This document shows positions 39,001 to 45,000 of a stretch of DNA of 64,000 nt, piece by piece (the first letter of the stretch is position 1; each line of letters opens with the position of its first letter). Origin of the DNA: an uncultured Planctomycetia bacterium (GTDB lineage: Bacteria > Omnitrophota > Gorgyraeia > Duberdicusellales > 4484-171); the NCBI GenBank assembly GCA_964629655.1, contig CAZVQU010000001.1:228056-292055 (forward strand). Direction: 5' to 3'. Made by a program: the position numbers.

Positions 39001-42000
39001 TTGTTGGCCTCCCGAAAGCTTATCCGCTCTTTGATAGGCTTTGTCCAGAAGGCCAACTCTATCTAAAACTTCTAATGCTCTTAAACGCAAAACTTTGGGA
39101 AAAATATATAAACCTGAATACCACTTCTCATGCGCCGCAAGACTGCCTGTTAAGACATTATTTATGACAGAAAGATTTCCAATAAGATTAAATTGTTGGA
39201 AAATCATTCCTACCATAGATCTTACTTTTTGTAAGTTAGAACCAACAACACCTAACCCGTCTAGCTTCACATACCCCTGGCTGGGTGAAACCAATCCATT
39301 TACGGTGCGGAGAAGAGTTGTTTTTCCCGAGCCACTGGGGCCTAAAACAACTACGAATTCTCCCTGCTCTATTTTAGCCGATACTCCATCAAGGGCAGTA
39401 ACGTTTCCGTCAAAAACCTTTTTTACATCCTTAAATTCAATCAATTTTCTTTCTCCATCATCTCATTCATTTTGCGAAAATCTATGAAATCTTTGTCATT
39501 TACCTCAACGTACCTCTCCATCAAACCTCCGTAACCGCCTATTTCACCATACTTGTGTGCTTGCAAAACTCCCTTTTTAAGATTATCCTTAATCTCTTGG
39601 GGAAGGCTCTTGACATATGCCAATGGCGGGGGAGGAACATAGGCTTTGTAAATTATCCTGACATCATCGGGATTAAGAGTTCGGTCTTTAACCCTGGCGT
39701 TAAAATTTCTTGAGCTAACCCCGGCGAAATCAGCATGCTTATTTACTACTGACATAATAGCTGCATCATGACTTCCGGCATATTGAACAAATTTAAATTG
39801 CTCTTTATTGTTTGTATTTAAACCTATTTTTTTAAGTTGATAGCGCGGAACGAAGTCGCCGCTTGTTGAACCAATATGATTTAAGGCAAGACTTTTTCCT
39901 ATCAACTCTTCCTTGGTGAATTCCTTAATCGGGCTGTCCTTAGGCACTATGAAATAAACATAGTAGCTGGGAGAGGTATCTCCTTTGGCGATACCCGCTG
40001 CGAAAGCCTCAGCCCCGGCAAGTTCAGCAGCCTTAATATAGGTTTTGGCCCCGAACCAGGCTATATCAGCTCTGTCAGCCCGCATAGCTTCAACTGCTGC
40101 ATTATAATCTGTAACATCAATGCATTTTATTTTATAACCTGTAATCTCCTCGACAATTTTTAAAAGGCTTTCAAATTCATTGGATTGCGCCTTCTCACTA
40201 GCCGGAACAAAAACCATTGTTAAGTTAACACCTTGAACACTTTCCTTCGGAGCACAAGCTCCCAATGTCAAAAGGGAAATACTGCAAATTAAAATAATAA
40301 ATTTTCTCATTTTAAACGCTCCTTCTCTTGTTTAGAATGAAAGACCAATTGAACTACCTAAAACATTAGCATTAGACCAATTTCCATTTGCCTTTTTAGT
40401 CCGAGACATATACGATATAGTTAATTTTGAATCCCAAAGAAAAGCTGTAGAAATTCCTACAGTAGCCCTATTTTCGCCATAGCCATCAGTAGGTTCTAAA
40501 TTAACAAAGAACTCGTTAGAAACAAAAGGCGTAAAATCTCTGTTAAACAACTTAATTTTTTTTGCAATCTTTATTCTATCTCTATACAACCACGAATTAC
40601 TGTCAACATTACGTTCAAATCTTGACCGGTTGGAAAGCTTGAATCCGGCTAGCTCTAATTTTAAAGTAGCATCAAAATCAAATCTATTACTCTCTGTCCA
40701 ACGACCATTACTCTTAGCTGAAACCAACTTATGCCATACGCCTACATCAAAATAATCATTTATCTTAAAGTTTGGTCCAAAATACTGGACATAAGTATAA
40801 AGATTACCCATATCGTTATGAAACCTAAGCTGTTCAATTAAATTTAACTTAACTCTTTCATTCAGCTTTGCACTAACTGTAACTGTACTCCAATATTCGC
40901 TGCCATCACTAGCACCTACAATTGACATATAACCAAAAAATAACACAACAAAAGTCAGAAATACTCTCAAAGCCTTCATCTCAACGACTCCTCCTTTTTA
41001 CTTTATGGCTATCCTGCACTATGGACCACCTGCTTTTAGATTATCAAACTACATCAGGAAATTCTTTCAAGGCCTTCTCGTAATCTTCAGCAGTATCAAT
41101 TTCCTTCCATCCCCGCTCAATTATAGTAGCGTGTATATGCACCCCCATATCTATCATGTCTTGAATCATGTCTGTGAGATAGGCTTTTTCAAAAACCGGA
41201 GCTCTTTGGAAAGGTTTATCCCAAAAAAGCTGTTTTGCACGATCGAAATGTCTCTTAAATATCTCACTTCCCCTCTTTGTACATTTCATCATGCCTATGA
41301 ACTCACCATGTACATCGTGTTTTTGAGTAAAAATTTTGCCTATTTCTACCACCTTATTATCAGCATCTAGGATCACGCTTTCGGCTTCTTCTACTGGATG
41401 TTCTTTTCTCCCTTCATAATGGCCTCGCCAGTCAATATCCACAACGATAGAAATATCATAATTTGTTTTCAGAAGCCTAGATACCACTTCTTTCTCATAA
41501 AGAATATCTGAATAACAAATAATTACCGGTCCATCTATCTCTTGCTCGGCATAAAAAAGGGAATTTAATATGTTATTCTGCTCATAATTATCGTTTATAT
41601 AATACTTTAAATTAGAATATTTTATCTTTTCCTTTTTATACCCTTTGACTACCGAAATATCACTAATGCCGTTTGCACTTAAAGCTTCCACTTGTCTCTG
41701 TAGAAGAGACTTCCCTTCAATACTTAACATACATTTTGGTAAATCCTCGGTATAGCTACGTAAACGGGATCCTTTTCCGGCAGCAATTATAATAGCTTTC
41801 ATTCCTATCTCCTCTATTGATTGAGTAATCTTTCTTATCTTTTCCCCTGTTAAATTTACATTTTTTATTACTCTCAAAAGCTGTAAAGCTTCCTTGTGCT
41901 CTTTTAAAATATCTGCTACATCATGAGGAATCTTCTTTTGTGCCTGCCCTGCTAAATCGTAAAAATGTTCTAAATTCCCTTCTAGCGTATAAGCTAATTT

Positions 42001-45000
42001 CTTAATTGTCTCTTTGCTGGGTGCTTTTCTTTTACCATTCTCGATGTCATTCAGGTAAGAGGCAGAAATCCCTATCAGACGAGAAAGTTCCCTTTGCCCG
42101 ATTCCTCGTGTTGCTCTTAAAAGCCTTACATACTTACCAAATCCTACTTTTTTCTTAGCCATATCTCTAGTGTTCGCTAATAGGTTAACACTTCCCACCC
42201 ACCTCTGTCAAGCACTTTTTTCAATATTCTAAAAGAATCCGGAAATCTCTAATATATGTATGGCTTTTAGGAGTTTTTCAGAGGCCTTAAATGCTTAGAA
42301 TAAAGCTATTTTTTTGCCTGTTGTCCAATCCATTTATATGTTTTCTCTAACCCTTGTTCTAAGCTAATTTGAGGTTCCCAGTTGAGAATTTCTTTTAACT
42401 TTGCATTGTCACTATTTCTTCCCCGAACACCTTGGGGTTTTGATAGATCATGCTTCTTGGTTATTCTCTTACCGGCAATTTTAGCTATAATATCTACTAG
42501 CTCATCTACCGTAACTAGCCTATCTTGGCCTAAATTAAGAGGCTGTAAATAATCAGATTGCATAAGGCGAAATATTCCTTCTACGCAATCATCAATGTAA
42601 CAAAAGGAACGAGTCTGTTTCCCGTCACCCCAAACTTCTATATCATCTTCATCTTTTGCTAAGGAAATTTTTCGACAAATTGCCGCCGGAGCTTTTTCTT
42701 TCCCACCCTGATAAGTCCCTAAGGGACCAAAAATATTATGGAAACGTACCATGTGAGTTTTAAATCCATAATCTTCTGTATAATACTGACAGGCTAACTC
42801 GGAAAATAGCTTCTCCCATCCATAACCCGGTTCAGCATCCGCAGGGTATGCGTCTTCCTCCTTTAGCATCTTTACGTTAGGGTCTTTCTGTAAATATTGA
42901 GGATAAACGCAGGCTGAACTTGTATAGAGATAATTTTTTACTCCTGATTTTCGGGCAGCTTCAAGCATATGCAGATTTATTAAAGCATTGTTCCTAAGAA
43001 TTTCTGCATGAGAGGCAGTGATATAGCCAATACCACCCATATCTGCAGCAAGCTGATAGACCTCATCTATTCCCTCACAAGCTTTCATGCAATTATCAAA
43101 TTCACGTAAGTCTAATAACTTAAAATCATCGGCAGAGGTTTCCTCAAACTCAGGATTCTTTACATCATCCCCTCTTACCCAATAACCTTTCTTCTTTAAA
43201 TACTTTACTAAGTGATGCCCGATAAAACCACCAGCGCCGGTAACTAATGCTCTTCGCTTCTCCATGCTGCAACCTCCTAACTCTTTCCTTTTCCTAAATA
43301 TTTGATATTTGCTTCTAAATCCTTACCCTTAAAGATTCCCCAACAATCTAATATGCAAGTTCCTCTCTTTAAATCGTTATTGTTTATTTTCTTAAACTCA
43401 TCCCAAGGTGTCGTCACTAATAAAATATCAGCTTCTTTAGCGCATTCCTTACTACTCTTGGCGTATTTAACTCCGTCACCCAAAACGCCCCTGACTGCAC
43501 CTAAGCTTTGAGGATCATAGACTATTACTCTATACCCTTCGTTAACTAAAAGTTCCACGATATCTATAGCTTGTGAGTCTTCAATAATTGGCGTATTGGG
43601 CTTATATGATAATCCCAATACTCCTACGACAACTTCATTTTTTGTTTTATTTAAATCTTTAACTAAATCTTTTACTATTTCCTCAATTCTTCCTACCTGA
43701 TCCCTGTTTACCTCATCTACCATCTCCGCCAATTTTGCTTTCTCTCCAACCTTTCTGGCAAAGGCAGCAAAAGCTACGTTATCACGGGGAAAACATGGTC
43801 CGCCAAAGCCCAATCCCGGTTTTAAATACTTCTTGCCAATACGAGTATCCATTCCAATTGAACTAGTAATCATTCCTGAATCAGCTTCAGGTACTTTCTC
43901 GCAGATAGCAGCTAAAGAATTTGCATAAGTTATCTTCATGGTGACATAACAATTAAGTGAAATTTTAGCAATCTCAGAACTTACCAAATTCATCCTGCCG
44001 AATTTAGGCTTATTATCACAGGTGTTCTTGTAAATTTCCTCTAAAATATCTCCATCCTTCTTGTCAATTTCACCAATTAGAAGAAAATCAGGATTTAAAA
44101 AATCATGGATCACGCTTCCTAAAGCAATAAACTCAGGATTGTAAGCTATCCCGAAATCCTTACCACATTTTTTCCCTGAGGTTTCTTCCAGTATGAATTT
44201 TCCAACATGCTCTGAGGTTCCCGGCATAACTGTAGAAGTAATAACCACTAAATGGTAACCATTTTTATTCTTTAGAGCCGAGCCTATTGCTTTTAAAGAC
44301 TCTTTGAGTTGCTGGTTAGAAAAAGAACCATCAGCCTCTGAAGGCGTCGCAACAACAATAAAAGTTACCTGGGAATTACTAATAGCTTCTCTATAGTCAG
44401 TAGTTGCTTTTAAATTGTCTTTACATTTTTTCAAAGTTTCAGTTAAGTCAGTCTCGGAAATAGGATTCTGGCCTTTATTTATTAAATCTACCCTATGGCT
44501 ATCAATATCTACCCCGATTACTTTATGACCCTTGCTGGCAAAGCAAGCTGCCGAACATAATCCTAGTTTACCTAACCCGACTACAGATATGCTTTTCATC
44601 TTAATACACCCCCTATACCTCTGCAGATCCTGTATTACCATACAGAAATGCTTTAATTCCCACTTTTATCTCCCTAATGTCTTCAAAGGCCTTATGAGGA
44701 TCTTGCAAATACCACCTGAGACGCTGCAAAATCCAGATTGGTCTTAAGTAAAACTTTCTATAAGCCCTCTTCTTAGCATCGATAAGTTGTTTTAAAGTTA
44801 TTCCTTTGGGAAGATAGACCGGCCAAAAGCTATGGGCTTCATACCCGGTTTTTTTGTTTACAAATTTATCAATAATGTCTTTATCAATAATTCCCTCTTT
44901 TATGGCTTCATCGTAAAGAATTGAACCTGGTTGTGGCCAAGTAATATGAATACCCATAAAATCAGCTCTTGTCTTGGGGCCAAAATTAATCGTATCATTA

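Follow-up and report, generated by a model that had tools for sequence, protein, structure and literature searches.

A conserved fusion of an XRE helix-turn-helix and a nucleotidyltransferase as a candidate enzyme-repressor for phosphonate uptake and activation

Introduction

What is the function of a protein in which a DNA-binding domain and a nucleotide-transferring enzyme are encoded by one gene? The question is raised by an open reading frame (ORF) at positions 41044..42198, minus strand, of a 64,000-nucleotide stretch of DNA from an uncultured bacterium of the Omnitrophota (contig CAZVQU010000001.1; the whole stretch is called the window below). This ORF joins a helix-turn-helix (HTH) of the XRE type to a nucleotidyltransferase (NT) domain of the LicC/PntC type, and the product is referred to here as HTH-NT. 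Comparison of related loci establishes, as far as sequences can, that the fusion is conserved, that it has an operator and promoter architecture of its own, that its catalytic motifs are intact and that it is coupled both to methylphosphonate synthase (MPnS) and to importers; what we infer is which substrate is used, whether regulation is positive or negative, and what serves as effector and as acceptor. The interpretation that we prefer, and that we place just on the probable side, is that HTH-NT is an autoregulated bifunctional enzyme-repressor for the uptake of a small phosphonate and its activation with cytidine monophosphate (CMP). Full-text searches of the literature found no description of the fusion, of its operator or of its coupling to importers.

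Results

A single gene with two domains

An earlier note on this DNA, made from the sequence alone, had located the ORF at 41044-42198. The ORF exists there, but it lies on the minus strand and its start had to be moved. The GTG at 42198 is almost certainly not the real start and the ATG at 42162 is, given that the database protein P0001 (372 aa, 100% identical) begins at this ATG and that the alignment of every homologue begins at the same position. The 36 nt separating the two codons are the conserved operator region described below. The gene and its domains are as follows.

41044..42162, minus strand: coding sequence of HTH-NT (372 aa and a stop codon), beginning at the corrected start, ATG 42162
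41944..42141, minus strand: XRE-type HTH domain, residues 8-73, five helices (Pfam and AlphaFold2 model)
41806..41925, minus strand: three-helix linker, possible oligomerisation region, residues 80-119 (helices 80-88, 90-102 and 106-119)
41059..41802, minus strand: LicC/PntC-type NT domain, residues 121-368, with intact catalytic motifs

That both domains reside in one ORF was confirmed with Pfam. In the 384-aa reading, HTH_3 (PF01381) was matched at residues 25-69 (E=1e-10, 42 bits against a cut-off of 23), and NTP_transf_3 (PF12804; E=8e-12, 46 bits against 27) and NTP_transferase (33.9 bits against 21.2) were both matched from residue 134; HTH_31 and HTH_19 likewise exceeded their cut-offs at the N-terminus. 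The two strings on which the assignment had originally been based, IIIAAGKGSRLR and GWKEIDTAEDY, are both present in the translation. NCBIfam has no equivalog for HTH-NT; its matches, to sugar-phosphate and inositol-phosphate nucleotidyltransferases, were all partial and below threshold.

The AlphaFold2 model (mean pLDDT 87, pTM 0.71) contains an N-terminal block with helices at residues 8-19, 23-30, 34-41, 50-59 and 64-73 (block pLDDT 84-94), and this five-helix fold together with the Pfam score places the N-terminus in the XRE or Cro/C1 type of HTH. In the alignment of homologues the recognition-helix segment SASYLNDIE is nearly invariant, with Y36, L37, N38, D39, I40 and E41 conserved. The region that follows is also conserved, with D69, L70 and A71 invariant and R97 likewise so in an LLRxIK segment. 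A 121-aa ORF on the plus strand (41005-41370), antisense to the 3' end of the gene, is without support and most likely spurious.

Could the ORF be an artefact, two neighbouring genes for a small XRE regulator and an NT that a frameshift in sequencing or assembly has run together? In favour of this, the family does include stand-alone NT genes. However, the same unbroken frame occurs in independent assemblies from many phyla, the alignment runs without a break across 30-37 homologues, and the linker is itself conserved and modelled as confident helices. We consider the artefact refuted by these alignments and give it practically no chance; the frameshift check proposed in the earlier note thus came out in favour of a genuine fusion, as did the confidence of the model.

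The fusion is a tight clade within a larger enzyme family

A search of 5.8 billion proteins gave 4215 matches, the best 120 of which were examined. All 120 carried both HTH and NT; 119 were 357-398 aa long and one was 480 aa, and apart from one match at 100% their identity to the window protein was 58-71%. Named sources among these best matches were Candidatus Omnitrophica, Aminicenantaceae (Aminicenantes), KSB1 and Rhodospirillaceae. A scan of species-representative genomes with the single protein yielded 13 loci; four Pelagibacteraceae (SAR11) genomes had the full fusion (53-55% identity), and seven genomes had an orthologue consisting of the NT domain only (44-63% identity; Omnitrophota, Clostridia, Planctomycetia, Terriglobia and Phycisphaerae). 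An alignment-based metagenome scan confirmed 448 relatives. In the best 80 of these the match begins within the first 9 residues, and in 77 of them it extends through residue 368 or further. Together, the 120 best protein matches and about 89 fetched fusion loci share the architecture, at 52-71% identity.

Such fusions had been called uncommon, a view that these counts overturn; the family is widespread and abounds in metagenomes, and the homologues are fused rather than always split into two genes. Of the clusters in a 50%-identity library, 549 were matched at E<=1e-30, and only three full-length fused representatives (P0241, P0244 and P0246) were present among the best 150 clusters, the rest being mostly stand-alone proteins of about 255 aa. 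Judged by these sequences, the fusion is therefore one tight, highly conserved clade inside a larger family of stand-alone enzymes.

A predicted 28-bp operator overlaps the promoter of the fusion gene

Inverted repeats were counted in the 220 nt upstream of the homologues and the pattern TGTT-N12-AACA was singled out. A position weight matrix (PWM) was then built from 28 distinct sites, with the sites located between HTH-NT and phnD left out of the matrix. The consensus, TGTTAACyTGTTAGCGAACAGGTAAACA, is a 28-bp quasi-palindrome with four TGTT/AACA half-sites at 8-bp spacing and an almost invariant core, GTTAGCGAAC. In the window the relevant elements are the following.

42163..42190, minus strand: predicted operator TGTTAACCTATTAGCGAACACTAGAGAT, one copy of the 28-bp quasi-palindrome
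42206..42211, minus strand: predicted -35 element TTGACA, read from the sequence and from the register across loci
42182..42187, minus strand: predicted -10 element TAACCT with TG before it (extended -10), inside the first operator half-site and separated from the -35 by an 18-nt spacer

All fetched loci were scanned with the matrix. The top match lay directly 5' of the fusion gene in 45 loci and in the short spacer between HTH-NT and phnD, which is the SAR11-type arrangement, in 31, so that 76/89 fusion loci had the operator at one of the two positions. In the other 13 the match was below the strict threshold, and in most of these it was still at the expected place or the contig was truncated. 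As a control, the PWM scan found an operator site in 0/7 loci with an HTH-less orthologue. The exact pattern TGTTN6TTAGCGAACA was matched 46 times, in 44 loci, always on the gene strand and at the two usual positions. The window operator, the sole strong match in the 64 kb, scored 26.1 bits; among the 128 kb scanned, the runner-up reached 9.7. A degenerate form of the pattern gave 1 match in the window where 0.01 were expected. The inverted repeat AGTGTT-N12-AACACT at the operator also came out of a separate repeat analysis.

A 107-nt spacer between HTH-NT and the upstream epimerase gene holds both promoter and operator. A match of at least 5/6 to TTGACA ending 12-15 nt 5' of the operator was present in 61/77 distinct contexts, compared with 3% of random positions. 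Since this register between the -35 and the operator is fixed across loci, the first half-site, TGnTAACCT, probably doubles as the extended -10. Given that the operator would then cover the -10 and the transcription start, repression is the regulatory direction that we infer. No RNA family was found by Rfam in 36500-43000 at E up to 0.1, and there is thus no known riboswitch as an alternative.

The presence of the conserved operator in the fusion loci and its absence from the HTH-less loci make it very likely that the HTH functions as a DNA-binding regulator. An oligomer reading the four half-sites would fit the alignment of the N-terminal 117 residues: positions 4-117 of the family profile matched the 'immunity repressor' 8bny in the PDB (E=9e-10) over the HTH and the helical region that follows it.

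A different site, a palindrome at 36939..36957, had earlier been put forward as a possible operator. It is a perfect 9+3+9 repeat, TATGTTAAA-N3-TTTAACATA (36938-36958), located between the phnDE stop and the next glycosyltransferase gene. As an operator of this system it was rejected: its TGTT-N9-AACA spacing is unlike that of the operator, it was present in 0/104 related loci, and its near-matches in the window were at chance level; the conserved operator is the site at 42163..42190. The half-sites of the palindrome do resemble the operator half-site TGTTAA.

The NT domain keeps its catalytic residues and probably has a changed pocket

The NT domain is modelled as an alpha/beta domain (residues 122-368). 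In a sequence search of the PDB the best match was LicC, the CTP (cytidine triphosphate):phosphocholine cytidylyltransferase of S. pneumoniae (1jyk; E=4e-17, or 5e-22 with the family profile), and PntC 6pd1 was also close. Foldseek ranked PntC 6pd2 first (E=4e-18), followed by inositol-1-phosphate cytidylyltransferase (IPCT) 4jd0 and then by LicC 1jyk, with TM-scores normalised to the target of 0.74-0.83 for the three structures. The signature G-x-G-x-R-(x)n-P-K is present as AAGKGSRLRSYTEDLPK. Across phyla, G129, G131, R133, P142, K143, D219, E354 and D356 are invariant (30-37 homologues), and conservation of the NT domain is at least that of the HTH. D219 stands at the place of the metal-binding Asp that follows the central strand, and the EIDT at residues 354-357, which forms the C-terminal E-x-D motif and is likewise invariant, aligns with EIDS of LicC. 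All three elements, G-x-G-x-R...PK, the 'YSD' Asp and E-I-D-T, are thus retained, where loss of the catalytic residues would have spoken against an enzyme, and from this conservation we consider it likely that the NT domain is an active enzyme.

PntC is the phosphonate-specific cytidylyltransferase of Treponema denticola (Tde1415, PDB 6pd1/6pd2), in which the amine of aminoethylphosphonate (AEP) or choline is contacted by Glu104 and Glu196, the counterparts of LicC Asp105 and Asp192 (Rice et al. 2019, PMC6697681). In a profile alignment, Y217-S218-D219 of HTH-NT aligned with E104-S105-D106 of PntC, which places an invariant tyrosine, Tyr217, at the position of Glu104; the position of LicC Asp192 (PntC Glu196) is Thr330, where the alignment is weak. 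The replacement of the amine-contacting Glu104 by an invariant Tyr217 points to a substrate without an amine. Given that the amine-binding Glu is not conserved, we do not class HTH-NT as an AEP-specific PntC; it may represent a sister specificity. Among the substrates that had been suggested for this protein, the idea of a phosphonate pointed in the right direction, while aminoethylphosphonate, phosphocholine and inositol-1-phosphate are disfavoured by the change of Glu104 to Tyr and by the MPnS linkage described next.

In the Ppm-NT protein of L012 (13074-14696), which joins an NT domain to PEP mutase, the catalytic residues of the NT are replaced (G131 to D, R133 to S and K143 to V). An intact NT gene is found separately in the vicinity, and the copy fused to Ppm may be inactive in this lineage.

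Relatives of the NT domain adjoin methylphosphonate synthase

The MPnS of N. maritimus (6b9s) was matched at E=1e-75 by the gene that directly follows HTH-NT in L004 and by the one that directly follows an NT-only orthologue in L016, and BLAST with the L004 and L016 proteins found the same neighbour in L005, L055 and L017. MPnS is followed by an Fe-dependent alcohol dehydrogenase (Fe-ADH) in L004 and L055, and L016 also has Ppm-NT, Ppd and Fe-ADH. When the comparison was reversed and started from MPnS, an NT of the family was found immediately 5' of MPnS in 4/4 sampled loci (L101-L104). Fe-ADH was immediately 3' of MPnS in three of them and 5' of the NT in L103; three had a TagF-like phosphotransferase, and two had Ppm-NT and Ppd. 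HTH-less orthologues with 57-58% identity are located beside Ppm and Ppd in L012 and L014.

The NTs of the MPnS loci are 37-42% identical to the window NT domain and keep all of the clade-specific invariants (N196, N197, Y217, D219, W245, Y249, R252, H255, P256 and E261, and further K276, E287, F288, Y328, D331, Q334, W352, E354 and D356), which the Ppm-fused NT domain, taken as outgroup, does not keep. The link extends to gene fusion: P0274 is a single protein made of NT and a complete MPnS (E=3e-82). The MPnS homologues L004:9163-10542 and P0274 (residues 250-692) retain the metal ligands, His and Gln (GH..HQ), as well as the VNFY Phe; at the position of MPnS Ile184 there is Leu in L004 and Ile in P0274. 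This pattern, which involves MPnS residues Phe162 and Ile184, is reported from structural work of 2017 to mark MPnS rather than hydroxyethylphosphonate dioxygenase.

Other fusions of the NT were Fe-ADH + NT (P0252), sulfatase + NT (P0260) and a GT2 glycosyltransferase joined to a clade NT (P0245). P0243 combines an integrase-type Arm DNA-binding domain with an NT (65% identical) and may be either a second DNA-binding solution or an assembly chimera. P0277 (724 aa), a candidate NT-MPnS fusion, was rejected.

When the window was searched by tblastn with Ppm-NT, Ppd, MPnS, Fe-ADH, MFS, porin and TagF-like proteins, only the NT domain itself and a weak NT match to an RmlA-like gene (52416..53285) were found. 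With no phosphonate biosynthesis genes in the window, the head group would have to be imported here.

Family members are named 'choline kinase/DNA-binding XRE family transcriptional regulator' by the Joint Genome Institute (JGI). In the passage of Lockwood et al. (PMC9381506) that leads into the methylphosphonate neighbourhood of N. maritimus, a 'choline kinase' is listed near phosphonate-production genes, and this listing may refer to the NT family.

HTH-NT heads an importer operon

In the window, HTH-NT is followed on the minus strand by genes for a DUF2490 protein, PhnD, PhnC and a PhnD-PhnE fusion, with gaps of 64, 21, -4 and 16 nt. The four downstream genes are listed below.

40332..40979, minus strand: DUF2490 protein, candidate outer-membrane channel (Pfam DUF2490, E=2e-24)
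39441..40310, minus strand: PhnD-type periplasmic phosphate- or phosphonate-binding protein (Pfam Phosphonate-bd, E=3e-44)
38641..39444, minus strand: PhnC-type ABC ATPase (Pfam ABC_tran; orthologues 50-58% identical at the same position in related loci)
37059..38624, minus strand: PhnD-PhnE fusion, a second binding-protein domain plus permease (Pfam Phosphonate-bd and BPD_transp_1)

The PhnD protein reached the NCBIfam subfamily TIGR01098 (173.9 against 112 bits) and missed the PhnD equivalog TIGR03431 (184.9 against 261), and the PhnD-PhnE fusion exceeded the cut-off of the PhnE equivalog (275 against 217 bits). The same PhnD-PhnE fusion is found in L001-L003, L046, L048, L052, L056 and L057. 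The window transporter thus has two phosphonate-binding modules, the free PhnD (39441-40310) and the PhnD-like domain N-terminal to PhnE. The PhnD-PhnE fusion (515-527 aa) recurs in Rhodospirillaceae and in many marine loci, and the SAR11 loci have a plain 275-aa PhnE.

The DUF2490 protein has a signal-like N-terminus and a C-terminal ...GLSF, ending in Phe. Homologues follow the HTH-NT or NT gene in L006, L007, L013 and L018, and a phosphate-selective porin (Porin_O_P) is found in its place, at most 2.1 kb downstream, in L024, L025, L029, L030, L035 and L038. Since a porin takes the corresponding position in related loci, DUF2490 may be the channel through which the same solute crosses the outer membrane.

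Among the fusion loci with enough downstream sequence, the next gene after HTH-NT was PhnD in 50 (followed by PhnC and by PhnE or PhnD-PhnE), an MFS transporter in 7 and MPnS in 3; a phosphate-selective porin, a methyltransferase and another gene were found in one locus each. The MFS neighbours, which occur together with a Porin_O_P, belong to the GlpT/UhpT/PgtP family of organophosphate:phosphate antiporters (E=9e-53 to 1pw4). Candidate transferases flank the cassette in several loci: TagF-like genes 42-45% identical to those of the MPnS clusters in L023, L048, L049, L071 and L076, more distant TagF-like genes in L008-L010 (SAR11, immediately 5'), L083, L088 and L099, and CDP-OH_P_transf genes in L025, L034 and L035.

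In Rhodospirillaceae the HTH-NT-PhnDCE cassette has an integrase-like gene (Phage_integrase, DUF6538) at its immediate 3' side (L001:12929-14398 and L003:8983-10452), and the SAR11 cassette occurs in varied neighbourhoods, beside thyX and mrp in L066 and L089 and beside a TagF-like gene in L008. Together with the 52-71% identity across phyla, this suggests that the cassette has spread horizontally.

The surrounding glycan cluster

The window operon is embedded in a surface-glycan cluster of about 35 kb with glycosyltransferases, two Wzy-like proteins, a carbamoyltransferase, a heptosyltransferase, sugar-nucleotide enzymes, three B12-binding radical SAM proteins and the following gene, which has a methyltransferase gene beside it.

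46762..47541, minus strand: CDP-alcohol phosphotransferase-family protein (Pfam CDP-OH_P_transf, 37 against 22 bits), in a separate upstream unit

The motif DYIDGAIAQ-x8-GGWLDPMLD can be seen in its translation. The earlier note had described this gene as downstream of HTH-NT and had linked the two functionally. The gene sits upstream instead, in a separate transcription unit, and the operon partners of HTH-NT are DUF2490 and PhnD-PhnC-PhnDE (37059..40979). Use of a CMP-activated head group by the 46762..47541 protein is possible, as a loose association.

The three B12-binding radical SAM proteins are encoded at 44613-46031, 48709-50235 and 57523-58983 (minus strand), and one of them adjoins a SAM methyltransferase and the CDP-alcohol phosphotransferase; in L001-L003 a B12-radical-SAM gene lies two genes 5' of HTH-NT. 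Fom3, an enzyme of fosfomycin synthesis, is a B12 radical SAM methylase acting on CMP-hydroxyethylphosphonate, and by this analogy the window proteins could modify a CMP-activated head group. Among 30 neighbouring window proteins scanned, none matched the Pfam families of choline kinase, LicD or the licB choline permease.

Discussion

Relation to known systems

Two known proteins combine repression with nucleotidyl transfer. NadR, the enterobacterial regulator of nicotinamide adenine dinucleotide (NAD) synthesis, which is also a nicotinamide mononucleotide (NMN) adenylyltransferase and ribosylnicotinamide kinase, acts on a precursor in two ways, by repressing the genes that salvage and transport it and by activating it with a nucleotide. 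Like HTH-NT it has an N-terminal HTH fused to a nucleotidyl-transferring enzyme, and the dual role is the same as that proposed here. The transferase of NadR, however, has the HxGH cytidylyltransferase-like fold and is accompanied by a kinase domain, whereas HTH-NT has the LicC/GlmU-type fold and no third domain; ligands and regulons are unrelated, and no sequence relationship is detectable outside the HTH. Because of the different transferase fold and the missing kinase, HTH-NT is not a member of the NadR family, even if it works like NadR. BirA, the biotin protein ligase and repressor of the bio operon, uses its nucleotidylated reaction product as corepressor and binds a long palindromic operator that overlaps the promoter. 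It is an enzyme-repressor as well and the model for the effector logic discussed below, but it has a winged helix and a class II synthetase-like fold and makes an adenylate, whereas HTH-NT has an XRE domain and a predicted cytidylate product.

On the enzyme side, PntC is the best structural match to HTH-NT. The two share the fold, the G-x-G-x-R...K motif, a predicted conversion of CTP and phosphonate to CMP-phosphonate, and an association with phosphonate clusters and cell-surface tailoring. They differ in that identity is only 20-22%, that Glu104 of PntC faces Tyr217 in HTH-NT, that PntC is fused to a transaminase or to Ppm and has never been reported with an HTH, and that the HTH-NT clade is tied to MPnS and not to an AEP transaminase. 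LicC belongs to the same Pfam family and supplies a glycan head group after uptake, but it lacks an HTH and works with a choline transporter, a kinase and LicD, whereas the operon partners of HTH-NT are PhnDCE. On the regulator side, SinR and the phage immunity repressors of the XRE type (8bny and 1b0n) have an HTH with following helices, as is typical of oligomeric repressors that bind multiple half-sites; they are small stand-alone proteins without an enzyme domain and their operators differ.

A proposed mechanism

In the mechanism that we propose, the NT domain would use CTP and a small amine-free phosphonate to form CMP-phosphonate, methylphosphonate being the most probable substrate and 2-hydroxyethylphosphonate the alternative, and a TagF-like or CDP-alcohol-type phosphotransferase would attach the phosphonate group to a surface glycan. 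The XRE domain and the helical oligomerisation linker would bind the 28-bp operator over the -10 of the gene's own promoter and repress the operon, with the HTH occupying the four half-sites probably as a tetramer or a dimer of dimers. The genes under such control would be those of the importer in the window and in SAR11; in L004 and L055 they would be those of the synthase and the reductase. Through a single protein, a cell could then import a phosphonate, activate it and limit its own uptake. If BirA and NadR are taken as models, the affinity for DNA might be set by whether the active site is filled with the substrate, CTP or CMP-phosphonate, a suggestion that we offer as tentative.

Alternative explanations

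The same architecture and the same repressor could also serve a substrate that is not a phosphonate but an organophosphate ester (sn-glycerol phosphate converted to CDP-glycerol for a TagF-type transferase, phosphoethanolamine or phosphocholine), scavenged via PhnDCE or GlpT-like importers. The membership of the alternative importers in the organophosphate:phosphate antiporter family fits this well, as do the match of the flanking transferases to the Pfam family of CDP-glycerol glycerophosphotransferases, the phosphocholine enzyme LicC as best PDB sequence match and a window without phosphonate biosynthesis genes. Against it, NTs of the family with the same invariant pocket residues adjoin the MPnS gene and are even fused to MPnS, and the HTH-less orthologues beside Ppm and Ppd are 57-58% identical. 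For phosphocholine and phosphoethanolamine in particular, the acidic residue that binds the amine (role from PMC6697681) is replaced by the invariant Tyr, and neither the choline kinase nor the LicD family was represented among the 30 window proteins scanned. An organophosphate ester is thus possible but rather improbable in our judgement, and a phosphonate is the substrate towards which we lean.

More distant is the idea, raised in the earlier note beside that of a bifunctional enzyme-regulator, that HTH-NT is purely a ligand-sensing transcription factor whose NT fold is a binding pocket for a phosphonate or nucleotide and has no catalytic role. The operator evidence does mark the protein as a regulator, and the four-gene cassette of the SAR11 type otherwise contains only transporter subunits, which is a classic layout of sensor plus transporter. 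Against it speak the invariance of all catalytic-motif residues across phyla and the conservation of the NT domain, at least equal to that of the HTH, and stand-alone HTH-less orthologues (57-63% identity) are found in biosynthetic clusters. In L008-L010, moreover, the TagF-like transferase directly 5' of the gene needs a donor activated with CMP or cytidine diphosphate (CDP), and the only other NT seen nearby in L008 is of the mannose-1-phosphate guanylyltransferase type. We therefore regard a pure sensor as unlikely; between the two functions first suggested for the protein, the enzyme-regulator making a CMP- or CDP-activated head group is the better one and the sensor-only fold is less favoured.

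Several observations weigh against an enzyme-repressor for a small phosphonate or against parts of it. The effector logic is pure analogy. The argument from Tyr217 comes from aligned sequences and not from superposed structures. Glycerol phosphate would be served equally well by the GlpT-like importers and TagF-like transferases. The PhnD of the window is nearest to PtxB and PhnD among PDB entries, at only about E=1e-20, with the phosphite binder PtxB best, and tblastn found no Ppm, Ppd, MPnS or Fe-ADH in the 64 kb. The window operator is of a weaker kind, with TATT as half-site 2, a degenerate half-site 4 and 26 bits compared with 35-41 in the best loci, and a generic scan of 36800-42500 for sigma-70 promoters and terminators was no better than shuffled sequences and did not call the promoter.

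Implications

Methylphosphonate esters on marine polysaccharides are thought to be the source of the methane in oxygenated sea water, and we know of no account of how methylphosphonate is activated, attached or regulated. The HTH-NT family is a candidate for the activating enzyme: it adjoins MPnS in every sampled MPnS locus and is fused to it in one protein. HTH-NT is also a candidate regulator with a precisely predicted operator, and it is unexpectedly tied to importers, both in SAR11 and in uncultured phyla.

As a speculative extension, which we hold to be possible rather than likely, HTH-NT and PhnDCE could form a system for the salvage and display of methylphosphonate or hydroxyethylphosphonate, in which cells without C-P bond synthesis would import the phosphonate, activate it with CMP and esterify it to glycans, with CMP-phosphonate acting as a BirA-like corepressor and and, since the cassette is common in SAR11 and other marine bacteria, with these carriers providing an unrecognised non-catabolic sink and exchange route for the methylphosphonate that fuels aerobic marine methane production. 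If the enzyme-repressor proposed here is real, it would be a third, structurally unrelated enzyme-repressor using nucleotidyl transfer, beside BirA and NadR.

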